Positions 24,596 through 60,462 are shown, counted from the first letter of the stretch. The stretch is 64,000 nucleotides of DNA from a virus (IMGVR_UViG_3300021963_000024), one strand, 5' to 3'. The notes: generated by a model from the letters alone, not told the origin. Made by a program: numbers and translations.

Positions 24596-24913
24596 TTAAT
24601 GTGTACTATTTAGTTCGTAATTAAATTCTTTTAACAATTCCGTTTCGATTTGGTGAGCTAATGCTTTACCCCTTACTACGTCAACGATAAACAATTCGTA
24701 AACTTCAGGATCATTCTCACGCATATCAATATACAATGCCCATTGCTTTTTCTCTTTACGGGCTCTGCTCTGGTGTTTTAAGAAACGCAAGTGAGCAGAA
24801 TAATGAAACCTACGTCCAATTGCGGCAGTTATACCGATATACGATTTGCCGTTTGATGTATTCACAATTTCGTATATAACGTGGTTTCTATCTGACCTTT
24901 TCTTTCTACTCAT
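24596..24913 (-). CDS. GIY-YIG domain protein
   Basis: VIYEIVNTSNGKSYIGIT...R spacing matches a GIY-YIG nuclease motif. 105 aa. Confidence 0.5.
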   Translation of the reverse strand: MSRKKRSDRNHVIYEIVNTSNGKSYIGITAAIGRRFHYSAHLRFLKHQSRARKEKKQWALYIDMRENDPEVYELFIVDVVRGKALAHQIETELLKEFNYELNSTH

Positions 24914-26071: not shown

Positions 26072-26195
26072 ATATTACAAATTTTTTATATACCTTGTCC
26101 GATATTGGAACTTTACCCTGTAAAGATACGGCAAATTTTAGGGACCACCAAATAATTTGAAAAAAAAGTTTATTGACAATCAACGAGTTATAAAA
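26072..26195 (-). repeat. ~120-bp upstream element, copy 1 (late-promoter-like TATATAAAA plus palindrome CTTTACcctGTAAAG plus operator)
   Basis: About 85% identical to 51518-51640 by eye. Both copies sit immediately upstream of the ATG of a minus-strand gene. Confidence 0.5.
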
Positions 26196-26445
26196 CCGAT
26201 ATATTTCCGCCGGCATAACTGATTGATTGTCAATAAAGAATTTTTGAAAACATAACTCGTTGACAATCAATTAGTTACGAAATTTCTATTTAACATAATA
26301 TCAATTATTAGTTTTTTTCGGGTTTTTCTTGCGTAAAGCACTGACAATCAATTACTTCCCTATTTAACATAATATATTATATAGGACACTGGCAACTAAC
26401 TGATAATCAACAAGTTATGCAACTCATTGAAAATCAATCAATTAT
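26173..26445. promoter_or_regulatory. cluster of six palindromic operator repeats (consensus ATAACT-nn-TTGA-nnn-TCAA-nn-AGTTAT)
   Basis: Copies at 26173-26191, 26215-26233 (inverted), 26252-26278 (full 27-bp palindrome), 26341-26357, 26397-26418 and 26427-26445. Confidence 0.6.
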
Positions 26446-26478: not shown

Positions 26479-26710
26479 CACGGTGCGAAATAAAAATTAT
26501 CTAATGAAACGCAGACCAGGCTTATATTTGGCAATGTGGAATATTTTTCGTATCTTCAGGAAACCCGTTACAGGTCTGCGTTTCATCGCACGGACCACAA
26601 TAGCTAAATTAATTTCACTTTGCGCAACTCACCTAACTAATCGGGACTAACTCTGCGCATCCCCTTTCACCATTTTTGTATTGCCGGGAAAAACATTGCG
26701 CAGTGTGAAC
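26479..26710 (+). ncRNA. GC-rich structured non-coding island (candidate sRNA), copy 2, with embedded plus-strand promoter-like motif
   Basis: 14-bp inverted repeat ATGAAACGCAGACC (26504-26517)/GGTCTGCGTTTCAT (26573-26586) encloses TTGGCA-N17-TATCTT (26528-26556). Downstream hairpin GCGCA...TGCGC and TGCGCAGTG block. Confidence 0.3.
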
Positions 26711-26715
26711 GCAGG

Positions 26716-26880
26716 TGGGATATTTCAGTTTATAGTGATACACTTTTATAGTAATTTGTTTTCTTTGTAGTGTGTAAGTATGTAAGTAAATTATTTTGAC
26801 ACATTAAATTTTTACCACTCTTTAACACAATTTACCACTTTTACCCACAAATTAACACTACATTATTTATTTTGACACTG
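26716..26880. repeat. iteron-like short direct repeats (TTTACCAC x3, TTTTGACAC x2) in AT-rich spacer
   Basis: Visible direct repeats within the 600-bp non-coding stretch 26270-26866. Confidence 0.35.
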
Positions 26881-27103
26881 TATTGTTTAATATACACAAC
26901 TTATGGACTCTATTTCGTTTTATATGTTTTGTTAATTCAGGTTCAGCAATATATGTTCTACTCCAACCAACTAAACTAACTCTATTTTTATATCCTCTTG
27001 TTTTATATCCTGTTATCCTTCTCCAACCTTTTGTTATCCACATTGGCATAGTTTTCATTATACCTTCTTTATCATTCCATTCGTTATATTTTCTTATATT
27101 CAT
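26867..27103 (-). CDS. hypothetical protein
   Basis: 78 aa ORF. Confidence 0.3.
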   Translation of the reverse strand: MNIRKYNEWNDKEGIMKTMPMWITKGWRRITGYKTRGYKNRVSLVGWSRTYIAEPELTKHIKRNRVHKLCILNNTVSK

Positions 27104-51517: not shown

Positions 51518-51640
51518 ATTAATAAAATTTTATATATATCTCCAATATTGGAAACTTTACCCTGTAAAGATACGAAATTTTCCCGAACTGGCCAAATAAT
51601 TTGAAAAAATTGTTCATTGACAATCAACGAGTTATGAAAT
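51518..51640 (-). repeat. ~120-bp upstream element, copy 2
   Basis: Shares caatattggaaactttaccctgtaaagatacg...ccaaataatttgaaaaaa...ttgacaatcaacgagttat with 26072-26195. Confidence 0.5.
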
Positions 51641-51742
51641 ACCCTATAAAACCAAAAGCATAAGTCATTGATTGTCAATAAAGAATTTTCTCATTGATAA
51701 TCAACGACTTATGCGTAACCCATTGAGGGTCAATTAGTTATG
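51617..51742. promoter_or_regulatory. cluster of four palindromic operator repeats
   Basis: 51617-51635, 51668-51678 (inverted), 51694-51712 and 51730-51742. Confidence 0.55.
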
Positions 51743-56578: not shown

Positions 56579-57895
56579 CTACCAAACGATAGTTTCTTCA
56601 TCACCTTGTTCATCTTTCACTTCATTGAAAAGTGCTTCATCTGTTGATTTAACATATTTTTGAACAAGTTGTTTAATAAATACTCTTTCACTATCCAACC
56701 CACCATCATTACTGAAATATGGTAAGATAGCGATTTCAGCCGCTTCCATTAAGGTAAACCCATCATAGATAAGACCGGCAGCTTCCACATTCACACGTGT
56801 CGAAATGATTGTTGAGATTTTACTCATATCAGTTTTGATTAACTGACGAGTTGTATCAGCAATCTCGGATAAAGCTTGTAATGCATATTCATCAGCTTCA
56901 GGGAATTTGAATTTCAACAATGCCAATTCACTATCCTTATCCAACAAATCCATTTCAATAGTTACGAAACGGTCCATAATCGCACGGTCCATAATACGTG
57001 TAGACGTATATTCGTTACCAATGTTTGCCGTTGCGATGAATGTAACACCATTTGCTACTTTAACAATTGGTGAACCTTCAGCCTCGTCCAATCGTAAATA
57101 ACGCTGTCCGGCATCCAACACAGTCATTAAGATATTCCAAGCTTCTGGGTGAGCACGGCTAATCTCGTCCAATAGGATGATTGCGTTTGGAGTGCTGATT
57201 GCTTTTACGAAAGCGGATTCAGCAAAGAATGTTCCGTTTTCTTTATTAAAGTGTGTGTTACCGATAAGAGTAGCACGTGGGTCTTGCGTTGCACCTAAGT
57301 TGAAATAAAAGTCAGGACGCTTCAATGAACGAACTAACGATTGAGATGCCAAAGTTTTACCACAACCAGTAGGACCAGTCATCATAATATTCTTACCACG
57401 AACTGCTGAACGAAGAAGATACTTCCACTTAAGCGGTTCAATGAATAATCCTTCAGGTTTCAATTCACCACCTTTCTCGTGGATAAATTGTTTCAAATGT
57501 TCGTGTGTTTCAAATGCTTCACTTACACTATCACATGCAGCATCTTCAATAACATTTGCTAATTTTTTAAATTCATCCATCTCAACAAGTTTGTAAGAAA
57601 GATTACCACTTTTGTTTACAAAACCACGGATTGCTTTATTCTCCGTATGTGCTTGTTTCATTTTTTGTTTCGAAATACCATCGACTTTTGTATCAATGAT
57701 ATCACTCTTTGTGGTCATAAGTGCGAAACTTCTACCCACTTGCACAATTTTGTAACATTCATTTGTGAAACCTACATTGGTATCCACTGTCTTTTGAGTT
57801 GTTTTGCGTCCACTCACACGCTTTGCCGTTTTACGAGCCATAGTTTTCGATTTAGTAGTTTTTGTAACATTTTTCTTACGCATAGAAATATCCAT
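56579..57895 (-). CDS. cobS: AAA+ ATPase, MoxR/CbbQ/CobS-like
   Basis: Walker A GPTGCGKT, Walker B ILLDEISRA, and IATANIGNEY...MDRF typical of AAA_5. N-terminal basic extension. Confidence 0.7.
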   Translation of the reverse strand: MDISMRKKNVTKTTKSKTMARKTAKRVSGRKTTQKTVDTNVGFTNECYKIVQVGRSFALMTTKSDIIDTKVDGISKQKMKQAHTENKAIRGFVNKSGNLSYKLVEMDEFKKLANVIEDAACDSVSEAFETHEHLKQFIHEKGGELKPEGLFIEPLKWKYLLRSAVRGKNIMMTGPTGCGKTLASQSLVRSLKRPDFYFNLGATQDPRATLIGNTHFNKENGTFFAESAFVKAISTPNAIILLDEISRAHPEAWNILMTVLDAGQRYLRLDEAEGSPIVKVANGVTFIATANIGNEYTSTRIMDRAIMDRFVTIEMDLLDKDSELALLKFKFPEADEYALQALSEIADTTRQLIKTDMSKISTIISTRVNVEAAGLIYDGFTLMEAAEIAILPYFSNDGGLDSERVFIKQLVQKYVKSTDEALFNEVKDEQGDEETIVW

Positions 57896-57917
57896 TTAAT
57901 TGGTGATTGATTTATCA

Positions 57918-57946
57918 AATATACGAAAAATTTCCCGTTTCACCAA
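57918..57946 (-). promoter_or_regulatory. sigma70-like promoter TTGGTG-N17-TATATT upstream of the AAA+ gene
   Basis: Minus-strand read TTGGTGAAACGGGAAATTTTTCGTATATT. Confidence 0.5.
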
Positions 57947-57962
57947 ATTTATTTTTAATTAA

Positions 57963-58031
57963 TTGATTATCAATGATTTATGTAATAAAAAAAGGGGTAA
58001 TATATACCCCTTTGATTATCAATGAGTTATG
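57963..58031. promoter_or_regulatory. operator-hairpin-operator cassette
   Basis: Operators at 57963-57982 and 58012-58031 flank the terminator hairpin AAAGGGGTA-atata-TACCCCTTT (57991-58013). Confidence 0.55.
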
Positions 58032-60310: not shown

Positions 60311-60338
60311 AGTAATAAATTTTTGTGTGATTTCATTA

Positions 60339-60367
60339 AATATACGAAAAATTTTTGAATTTACCAA
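60339..60367 (-). promoter_or_regulatory. sigma70-like promoter TTGGTA-N17-TATATT upstream of the VWA gene
   Basis: Minus-strand read TTGGTAAATTCAAAAATTTTTCGTATATT. Confidence 0.5.
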
Positions 60368-60394
60368 ATATTTATGAAAGTTTTTTTTAATATG

Positions 60395-60462
60395 TTGAAA
60401 ATCAATCAGTTATGCAATAAAAAAAGGCTTAATATATAAGCCTTTGATTATCAATTAGTTAT
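60395..60462. promoter_or_regulatory. operator-hairpin-operator cassette
   Basis: Operators at 60395-60414 and 60444-60462 flank the hairpin AAGGCTTA-atatat-TAAGCCTT (60424-60444). Confidence 0.55.

Follow-up and report, generated by a model that had tools for sequence, protein, structure and literature searches.

A 27-bp palindrome common to Bacteroidota chromosomes in promoter and terminator cassettes of an uncultured jumbo phage: candidate sites for a host protein

The viral stretch analysed here (IMGVR_UViG_3300021963_000024; 64,000 nucleotides, hereafter the window) carries a 27-bp palindrome, ATAACTnnTTGAnnnTCAAnnAGTTAT, that recurs in four intergenic clusters, termed hubs 1 to 4, at 26.2, 51.6, 58.0 and 60.4 kb. 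The window has a GC content of ~30%, and the minus strand carries nearly all of its open reading frames (ORFs), many of them small. Among the products that can be recognised are a CobS-like AAA ATPase, a VWA/CobT-like protein, a carbamoyltransferase, a radical-SAM protein, UvdE, a DNA ligase, a peptide deformylase and a GP88-family protein; no tRNA genes or Rfam families were found in the window. The hub region has no nucleotide match to the cultured phages in INPHARED, and the closest AAA protein of a cultured phage, that of Microcystis phage Mel-JY01, is at most 57% identical. Relatives in IMG/VR, on the other hand, encode AAA proteins 58-87% identical, on contigs of up to 251 kb. These relatives, together with the remoteness from cultured phages, place the window in an uncultured jumbo-phage clade.

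Sites were scored on the 20 specified bases of the 27-mer, with a cut-off of at most 4 mismatches. With at most 3 mismatches, ATAACTnnTTGAnnnTCAAnnAGTTAT matches the window 11 times against 0.04 expected from shuffled sequences, while its 19-mer half-pattern matches 22 times against 2.5. The cut-off yields 13 sites, all of them intergenic and all within the hubs; the next-best candidates, at 6/20 mismatches, lie without exception inside an ORF. Twelve exact TTGAnnnTCAA cores fall in the hubs, with a single further one at 56907 in a coding region, and 14 of the 19 half-sites with at most 1 mismatch fall within the less than 1 kb of hub DNA. An earlier note on this DNA had proposed such a palindrome family in four intergenic hubs, and the scan bears this out: the distribution is non-random and confined to transcription-unit boundaries. 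The full palindrome that it had singled out at 26252-26278 is the best copy in the window, with 1 mismatch. Its other coordinates mark cores within a few bases (26397 corresponds to the core at 26400, and 51730 to that at 51723), except for 26341, where only a remnant is present. A string search of the searchable literature, which would miss a description given only as a logo, returned no description of the motif.

Every copy shares the core spacing TTGAT-N1-ATCAA. Apart from the palindrome at 26252-26278, the window copies combine one good half (0-1 mismatch) with a weaker one (2-3 mismatches). We take the 13-nt half-site ATCAAnnAGTTAT as the working unit, and the phage copies behave as independent half-sites. 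Most of these palindromes do not resemble intrinsic terminators, having one good half each; the real terminators are separate GC-containing hairpins that lie between the sites.

On the minus strand, each hub ends in TTTG-N20-TA(nn)TTT(G/A). The sigma-A promoter consensus of Bacteroides and other Bacteroidota consists of TTTG at -33 and TAnnTTTG at -7 (PMC7366714), and the fit of the hub promoters to it leads us to infer a Bacteroidota member as the host. The adjoining promoters had previously been described as sigma70-like. Sigma-70-type matches, however, are not enriched in the window (87 found, 80 expected), which together with the -33/-7 elements shows that assignment to be wrong. The two terminator hairpins reported with them are real, and both belong to the minus strand.

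The sites keep a defined position relative to these promoters (Table 1). From the end of the promoter-proximal site to the -33 box there are 20, 20, 15 and 26 nt in hubs 1 to 4, which puts the centre of the core at about -62, -62, -57 and -68. No dyad site overlaps a core promoter; all are upstream, as had been suggested, although not in the overlapping position of a classical operator. In hubs 3 and 4 the intrinsic terminator of the preceding gene separates the proximal site from a second one, 49 bp away on the upstream side; this terminator is followed by TTTG-N20-TAnnTTTG within ~45-55 nt. Hubs 1 and 2 have the promoter and no clear terminator, and three to five additional sites adjoin one another there. 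The cassettes of hubs 1 and 2 align without gaps down to the -7 box, are still similar into the ATGAGTAAG start, and precede unrelated proteins; the shared cassette spans roughly 110-130 nt, as read off the alignment without computing an identity.

Table 1. Palindrome sites, promoters and terminators of the four hubs (window coordinates)
Feature	Coordinates	Strand	Remarks
Promoter of 124-aa gene TTTGGTGGTCCCTAAAATTTGCCGTATCTTTA	26121..26152	-	Bacteroidota sigma-A type; conserved cassette
Hub 1 promoter-proximal site AAAGTTTATTGACAATCAACGAGTTAT	26165..26191		One half perfect, the other replaced by AAAC + T-tract
Hub 1 site	26215..26241		Strong half in opposite orientation (ATAACTGATTGATTGTCAA...)
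Hub 1 near-perfect full 27-bp palindrome	26252..26278		1 mismatch
Hub 1 degenerate remnant CTGACAATCAATTACTTCC	26341..26359		Worse than 6/20 mismatches
Hub 1 site	26392..26418		Core CTGATAATCAA; right half perfect
Hub 1 site	26419..26445		Abuts the 26392..26418 site; 27-bp spacing
Promoter of GP88-family gene	51565..51596	-	Bacteroidota type
Hub 2 promoter-proximal site	51609..51635		Cassette as in hub 1
Hub 2 site	51660..51686		Strong half oppositely oriented
Hub 2 site	51686..51712		26 bp from the 51660..51686 site
Hub 2 near-full palindrome GTAACCCATTGAGGGTCAATTAGTTAT	51715..51741
Promoter of AAA/CobS-like gene	57916..57947	-	Bacteroidota type; perfect TATATTTG -7 box
Hub 3 promoter-proximal site	57955..57981
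Intrinsic terminator of 751-aa VWA/CobT-like gene	57991..58013	-	Between two hub 3 sites; z = -4.4
Hub 3 distal site	58004..58030		Promoter-side flank fused to terminator stem
Promoter of VWA/CobT-like gene	60337..60368	-	Bacteroidota type
Hub 4 promoter-proximal site	60387..60413
Intrinsic terminator	60423..60445	-	Between two hub 4 sites; z = -2.9
Hub 4 distal site	60436..60462

The relatives keep motif clusters at syntenic places, namely before the VWA gene, in the gap separating it from the AAA gene, ~6 kb downstream, and before the 124-aa gene, although the surrounding intergenic DNA has diverged. A frequency matrix of 80 distinct sites gives the symmetric consensus cATAACTcaTTGATwATCAAtgAGTTATg. 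Both flanks are retained in 30 of these sites, only the upstream one in 36 and only the downstream one in 14; the bias arises because the downstream flank is taken by the conserved AAAC and T-tract in proximal sites or is fused to the terminator stem in distal ones. The earlier note had allowed that the motif might prove to be scattered at random, coding regions included, or to be a mere part of a conserved promoter with no dyad conservation in related phages. Neither holds, the dyad being preserved with both flanks in the 30 sites just mentioned.

The promoter register is preserved as well. All ten hub-1/2-type cassettes of the window and its relatives read site, 20 nt, TTTGGCCA, 20 nt, CGTATCTTTA, with zero indels; these ~75 nt from the site to the -7 box are indel-free while the letters of the spacers vary freely, and the 5' untranslated region beyond them is full of indels. 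In the hub 3 orthologues of relatives L119, L121 and L122 one core half has been lost, and ATCAAnnAsTTAT is kept exactly 15 nt from the -33 box. Such persistence of half-sites in position and promoter register, while the neighbouring bases diverge, points to purifying selection. Relatives L125, L128 and L131 have extra small ORFs with duplicated promoters at the hub.

Other elements accompany the hub promoters. At 26105-26121 and 51549-51565 on the minus strand, a 15-bp inverted repeat, CTTTAC-N3-GTAAAG, overlaps the -7 box and the likely transcription start of the promoters of hubs 1 and 2; L119 has a shifted variant, CTTACA-N2-TGTAAG, and L319 a similar but imperfect repeat. The repeat may serve as another operator-like site or form a hairpin at the 5' end, and it is followed by a second palindrome, TCCAATATYGGA. 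Upstream of hub 1, within a non-coding stretch of ~800 bp, a plus-strand promoter-like site of Bacteroidota type (26522-26553, TTTGGCAATGTGGAATATTTTTCGTATCTTCA) opposes all genes. An inverted repeat, ATGAAACGCAGACC / GGTCTGCGTTTCAT (26505-26587), encloses it in a 55-nt loop. The promoter is kept in L319 and L322, and the arrangement suggests a divergent non-coding transcript or an inverton-like switch. Downstream of this antisense promoter (26600-26900 in the window, 3300-3560 in L319 and 3140-3400 in L322) there are two to four AGTGGTAAA units and a conserved block, GTGTGAACGCAGGTGGGATATTT, in TGCGCA-rich surroundings; the AGTGGTAAA units could be replication-origin iterons or sites of a second protein. 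RNAalifold gave only -4 kcal/mol for the region upstream of hub 1, so that no clear structured RNA is apparent there.

A palindrome of this kind could be read either as duplex DNA or as a hairpin in RNA, and covariation separates the two. In the phage copies, the variable 'nn' and flanking positions are no more complementary than shuffling predicts, and the conserved blocks show 6 mirrored, compensated double changes where 16.5 would be expected. At position 5, the two halves choose between C and G independently of each other, or even in an anti-correlated manner; in the other viral contigs that carry the motif the counts at this position are CC 64, CG 42, GC 33 and GG 9, such that a C-C or G-G mismatch would be present in about half of the palindromes. 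Nor does the position-5 base track a possible partner in the neighbouring site, in the examples that were read. On these three covariation tests we reject the RNA-hairpin reading for the phage copies as improbable. Moreover, the promoter-proximal copies, placed after the terminator and ahead of the start site, should be little transcribed. The lack of covariation and the single good halves together indicate that the phage element behaves as a duplex-DNA sequence read half-site by half-site, as would be expected for a dimeric protein.

We then scanned the exact 27-mer across 185,579 bacterial and archaeal genomes. It was found in at least 120 bacterial stretches, and some 110 of the matches listed, by a tally made by eye, are from Bacteroidota, isolates included; among the carriers listed are Saprospiraceae, Cytophagales, Emticicia, Flavobacteriaceae, Chitinophagales, Bacteroides clarus, Parabacteroides faecalis, Hymenobacter, Mucilaginibacter and Xanthomarina. 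One Microscillaceae metagenome-assembled genome (MAG) supplies about half of the matches listed, again counted by eye among the at least 120 stretches, and its 8-kb loci contain 4-11 additional copies. In the fetched bacterial loci, 260 of the 269 copies with at most 3 mismatches are intergenic, at a density of 1.42 per kb between convergent genes versus 1.08 per kb elsewhere. Perfect bacterial copies are often flanked on the outside by A- and T-runs. Among the bacterial copies at large, changes in the conserved blocks are compensated no more often than expected (124 versus 127). Some copies form a stable hairpin followed by a U-run, as an intrinsic terminator does. An Rfam search returned no match at gathering score in the window or in six bacterial loci, with only chance-level miRNA matches (E > 0.002).

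The motif is also present in IMG/VR viral contigs that have no proteins in common with the window (L100, L023, L118, L057 and L112; GC 42-49%). These carry many cGTAACTCGTTGAnnnTCAACGAGTTACg copies, recurring every ~0.7-1 kb in pairs typically 48-52 bp apart around a GC-rich hairpin; in the ~50-bp pairs, the flanks of the adjacent sites and the GC-rich spacer fold as one long hairpin. Across viruses the spacings peak at 25-28, 36-38 and 48-52 bp. Most bacterial copies, by contrast, stand alone, which makes the site-hairpin-site module a viral arrangement of a host-type site. A consensus-module search also found one copy in the terminal non-coding region of Bacteroides phage BT638P6, which is uninformative.

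Several of these genomes show further regularities around the palindrome. In the Microscillaceae MAG, Prado074, a GC-rich terminator-like hairpin, GCGCAGGCT...AGCCTGCG, with a T-run often precedes it (L204, L205, L228, L239, L283, L294, L296, L300, L304 and L313), as does a conserved 20-mer, CTGAAAAGTGGTGAAGAACC; the recurrence of both indicates that the palindrome there belongs to larger repeated intergenic units. Pairs 46 bp apart also recur (5000/5046 in L205 and 1510/1556 in L207). In Bacteroides clarus (L263, 1200-1630) and Parabacteroides faecalis (L231), a perfect copy stands ~24 nt upstream of a promoter-like TTTG...TATTTTG, after which comes a short terminator-ended non-coding stretch; the locus resembles a small-RNA gene and is conserved between the two genera. 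At the genome end of BT638P6 (L325, 1640-2053), ~120-bp tandem repeats, GGTAGTTAAACGTTCAGCCCCACCAAAACCGGGTTGAGG..., lie beside the single palindrome and a promoter-like box, CCGTATCTTTG.

The occurrence of the 27-mer throughout the hosts suggests that the protein that would read it is most likely conserved there, and the half-site offers a lead to its identity. The consensus of IHF is stated in the literature as WATCAANNNNTTR (e.g. PMC9452768). In the frequency matrix, the half-site w-ATCAA-nnAG-TTA-t reproduces each of the nine positions that WATCAANNNNTTR specifies, in matching register: both halves have W at 0, ATCAA from +1 to +5 and TTA from +10 to +12, and the most conserved flank bases are those of the TTR triplet. 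Bacteroides has an IHF/HU-like host factor, BHFa. This match makes an IHF/HU-type architectural protein the best lead, and we tentatively put it forward as a possible, though not a probable, reader of the palindrome.

Taken globally, these observations suggest that the motif is a family of double-stranded DNA binding sites for a dimeric, sequence-specific and most likely host-encoded protein, built into the terminator and promoter cassettes of the phage; judging from sequence comparison, we give this an even chance of being right. The reader would most likely be a conserved host factor, or a phage copy of one, rather than a private regulator of the phage. In this respect the earlier proposal of a single regulator gains from the dyad-symmetric sites at unit boundaries, while its phage-private version has become less likely with the 27-mer turning up in Bacteroidota chromosomes and unrelated viral contigs. 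Mechanistically, the cassettes would punctuate the early small-gene region of a Bacteroidota jumbo phage, where host RNA polymerase with sigma-A would start early transcription at the hub promoters. The host protein, which would be present already at infection, would bind just upstream of an A/T-rich tract, on a helical face fixed for each cassette type, and by bending or stiffening the upstream DNA could stimulate or shape early initiation. Arrays would permit cooperative coating of 100-280 bp, and sites that bracket a terminator may insulate the upstream unit from the downstream promoter.

A number of results weigh against this interpretation. Two equally good host-type promoters on the minus strand (18770-18739 and 33324-33294) carry no sites, which also implies that the motif is not simply part of a promoter; sites accompany 4 of the strong host-type promoters of the window, which number at least 6. 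No candidate reader emerged from the window: its 119 ORFs include no helix-turn-helix (HTH) or HU/IHF family in a Pfam top-25 summary, Pfam and PHROGs scans of the hub-flanking genes, small ORFs included, gave no regulator, and local phmmer searches with HU, IHF and TF1 queries found no match in the window or in any fetched locus. The earlier note had looked to small ORFs for a DNA-binding protein, and the window yielded none. Hub 1, the largest hub, is followed by the 124-aa gene, whose product is 68-92% identical across the clade at a constant length of 124 aa and has a weak Mga-HTH match (E = 0.06). The AlphaFold model of this product (pLDDT 72), however, matched no solved fold when compared with the PDB by Foldseek, and this lack of a structural match leaves it unsupported as the binder. 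As for IHF, the resemblance is one to a consensus, and a single IHF-like dimer would presumably need the two ATCAA elements to be ~2 bp further from the dyad. In bacteria, no fixed distance to promoters was found, and the promoter coupling may thus be phage-specific. Perfect bacterial copies also show an excess of complementarity at the variable positions and at five or six bases beyond (p <= 0.0008, a signal partly inflated by the related loci kept in the set), and several stand 9-16 nt after tRNA genes, some followed by T-runs. Accordingly, in hosts the element can also act as a hairpin or bidirectional terminator.

Three other explanations have to be considered. A dimeric regulator encoded by the phage itself could switch the early promoters and modulate read-through, the host copies then being unrelated or bound by a homologue in the host. 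Viruses alone show arrays of 2-7 copies with preferred spacings (25-29, 36-38 and ~50 bp), most copies in bacteria being solitary; the presence of sites at some strong promoters and not at others is what a regulon subset would produce; the largest array is upstream of the highly conserved early 124-aa gene with its weak Mga-HTH match; and the search for a regulator covered the 64 kb of the window out of a genome of ~250 kb. We nevertheless consider a phage regulator unlikely, given that the identical 27-mer is iterated in many Bacteroidota chromosomes and in viral contigs without common proteins, that no DNA-binding family was detected in the window and the 124-aa protein showed no structural similarity to DNA-binding folds, and that the sites lie upstream of the core promoter instead of over it.

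It is very unlikely, in our judgement, that the palindrome is a selfish or neutral iterated repeat of Bacteroidota (of REP, MITE or HIP type), spread by a host enzyme or by recombination and offering the phage homology for cassette shuffling, as T4 PeSLs do, with no part in regulation. Its sequence is constant over many Bacteroidota families, whereas REP sequences are normally lineage-specific; its consensus is perfectly symmetric and lacks the hairpin asymmetry of REP/IS200-type elements; and the phage half-sites and promoter register appear to be under purifying selection. What such a repeat would account for is the very high copy number in one Microscillaceae MAG, where the motif is embedded in longer repeated units, the strictly extragenic placement, the outward extension of the bacterial palindromes with compensating bases and, in the phages, the likeness of the hub 1 and hub 2 cassettes before unrelated genes and the small-ORF indels at the hubs of relatives. 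A function at the RNA level, with hairpins that terminate, process or stabilise transcripts, or with sites 1 and 2 pairing through their right and left flanks, respectively, as a termination/antitermination switch, would fit the many bacterial copies that are perfect 12-bp hairpins with T-runs after them, some close behind tRNA genes, the site found inside a terminator hairpin in L119, L121 and L127, and the long hairpin formed by ~50-bp pairs and their spacer. Most window copies, however, are unable to fold, the phage copies lack covariation, half of the viral palindromes would be mismatched at position 5, the promoter-proximal copies would be little transcribed, and the motif has no Rfam match, all of which makes this the most improbable of the explanations considered.

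Several known systems come close to these cassettes. Among them are the PeSLs of T4-type phages, composite cassettes of an early promoter and a stem-loop terminator (PMC2839356, PMC4122927). Like PeSLs, the hub elements are short repeated cassettes between small genes of a plastic early region, with a terminator stem-loop followed by a host-type promoter in hubs 3 and 4, with paralogous copies before unrelated genes in hubs 1 and 2, and with indels between relatives at the cassettes. They differ from PeSLs in having a Bacteroidota -33/-7 promoter and one to seven copies of an additional 27-bp palindrome, separate from promoter and terminator and common to host chromosomes; sequence homology to the T4 PeSLs is not expected.

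In Escherichia coli, RIP/RIB elements (BIME-1) place an IHF site between inverted REPs at operon 3' ends. The present motif is likewise iterated, palindromic, biased to gene 3' ends and provided with a central sequence that fits WATCAANNNNTTR, and it is extragenic and of high copy number (260/269 intergenic, up to 11 additional copies per 8 kb). Here, however, the IHF-like sequence is itself the palindrome, made of two overlapping inverted half-sites, and it is conserved phylum-wide; the fully symmetric consensus, with no asymmetric head, argues against membership of the REP/BIME class. HIP1 (GCGATCGC), an 8-bp palindrome highly iterated in cyanobacteria and present in their phages, offers another example of a palindrome iterated in a bacterial phylum and common to its phages. 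HIP1 occurs inside genes, while the present motif has 27 bp, is intergenic and is positioned relative to phage promoters and terminators.

Among phage promoters, lambda pL and Mu Pe are IHF-stimulated early promoters, and phi29 has the upstream sites of p4. They share with the hubs the placing of architectural or activator-type sites upstream of early promoters of the host polymerase in a phage; the hubs differ in their multi-copy arrays, in having sites on both sides of terminators, and in host phylum and promoter type. By its fit to WATCAANNNNTTR the palindrome is a candidate site of the IHF/HU type. The arrangement of the lambda OR/OL operators was not found: no site overlaps the -35/-10 region (from the core to -33 there are 15, 20, 20 and 26 nt), and Pfam, PHROGs and a fold search with the 124-aa protein revealed no regulator of the HTH or ribbon-helix-helix type in the genes flanking the hubs in the 64-kb window. 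CRP/FNR-type sites (TTGAT-N4-ATCAA) and the streptococcal FabT site (TTTGATTATCAAA) share the inverted TTGAT...ATCAA core only; the phage core has N1 and not N4, with ATAACT/AGTTAT flanks 8 bp further out, and this spacing shows that it is not an FNR/CRP box. Fur and FNR boxes were both rejected, the likeness being limited to the core and the spacing or flanks wrong. We also provisionally set aside PM2, a near-palindromic -10/-30 promoter motif of B. thetaiotaomicron: it has 778 sites, mostly at internal or antisense starts, versus the rare 27-mer, and its orientation in the phage would drive antisense transcription. The hubs are best described as a host-type palindrome co-opted into phage promoter and terminator cassettes, with a reader that is probably host-encoded.

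Two features of the surrounding region bear mention. A 105-aa GIY-YIG protein is encoded among the early genes (24596-24913, minus strand), with a weak SegE-like match and a counterpart in relative L322; it may be a homing endonuclease and hence relevant to cassette mobility. Between 21000 and 22256 and between 22000 and 24000, the window has few ORFs (gaps of 284 and 602 bp) and its highest GC content (0.385), with no tRNA or Rfam match.

Bacteroidota are poor in canonical intrinsic terminators; they have atypical promoters, no Shine-Dalgarno sites and few regulators with known sites. Against this background, the palindrome could conceivably be the signal of an unrecognised, phylum-wide system of transcription punctuation, in which an abundant host protein would act as a factor-dependent terminator, insulator or roadblock and also as an upstream promoter element. 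Several unrelated phage lineages would then have copied the signal into site-hairpin-site-promoter modules that organise their early genes. We regard this broader proposal as quite unlikely.

The palindrome is long and sharply defined; many Bacteroidota chromosomes share it with a jumbo-phage clade and with unrelated phages, and in the phages it stands in fixed register with promoters and on both sides of terminators. This pattern points to a conserved factor that binds DNA and is not yet matched to its site, and the 27-mer is a concrete bait for finding it. Being nearly restricted to Bacteroidota, the motif is a possible signal for host prediction, and it could mark early units in uncultured Bacteroidota phages. 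The hubs would be an example of a phage borrowing the architectural sites of its host and, if the factor insulates or terminates, they would touch on how Bacteroidota end their transcripts.

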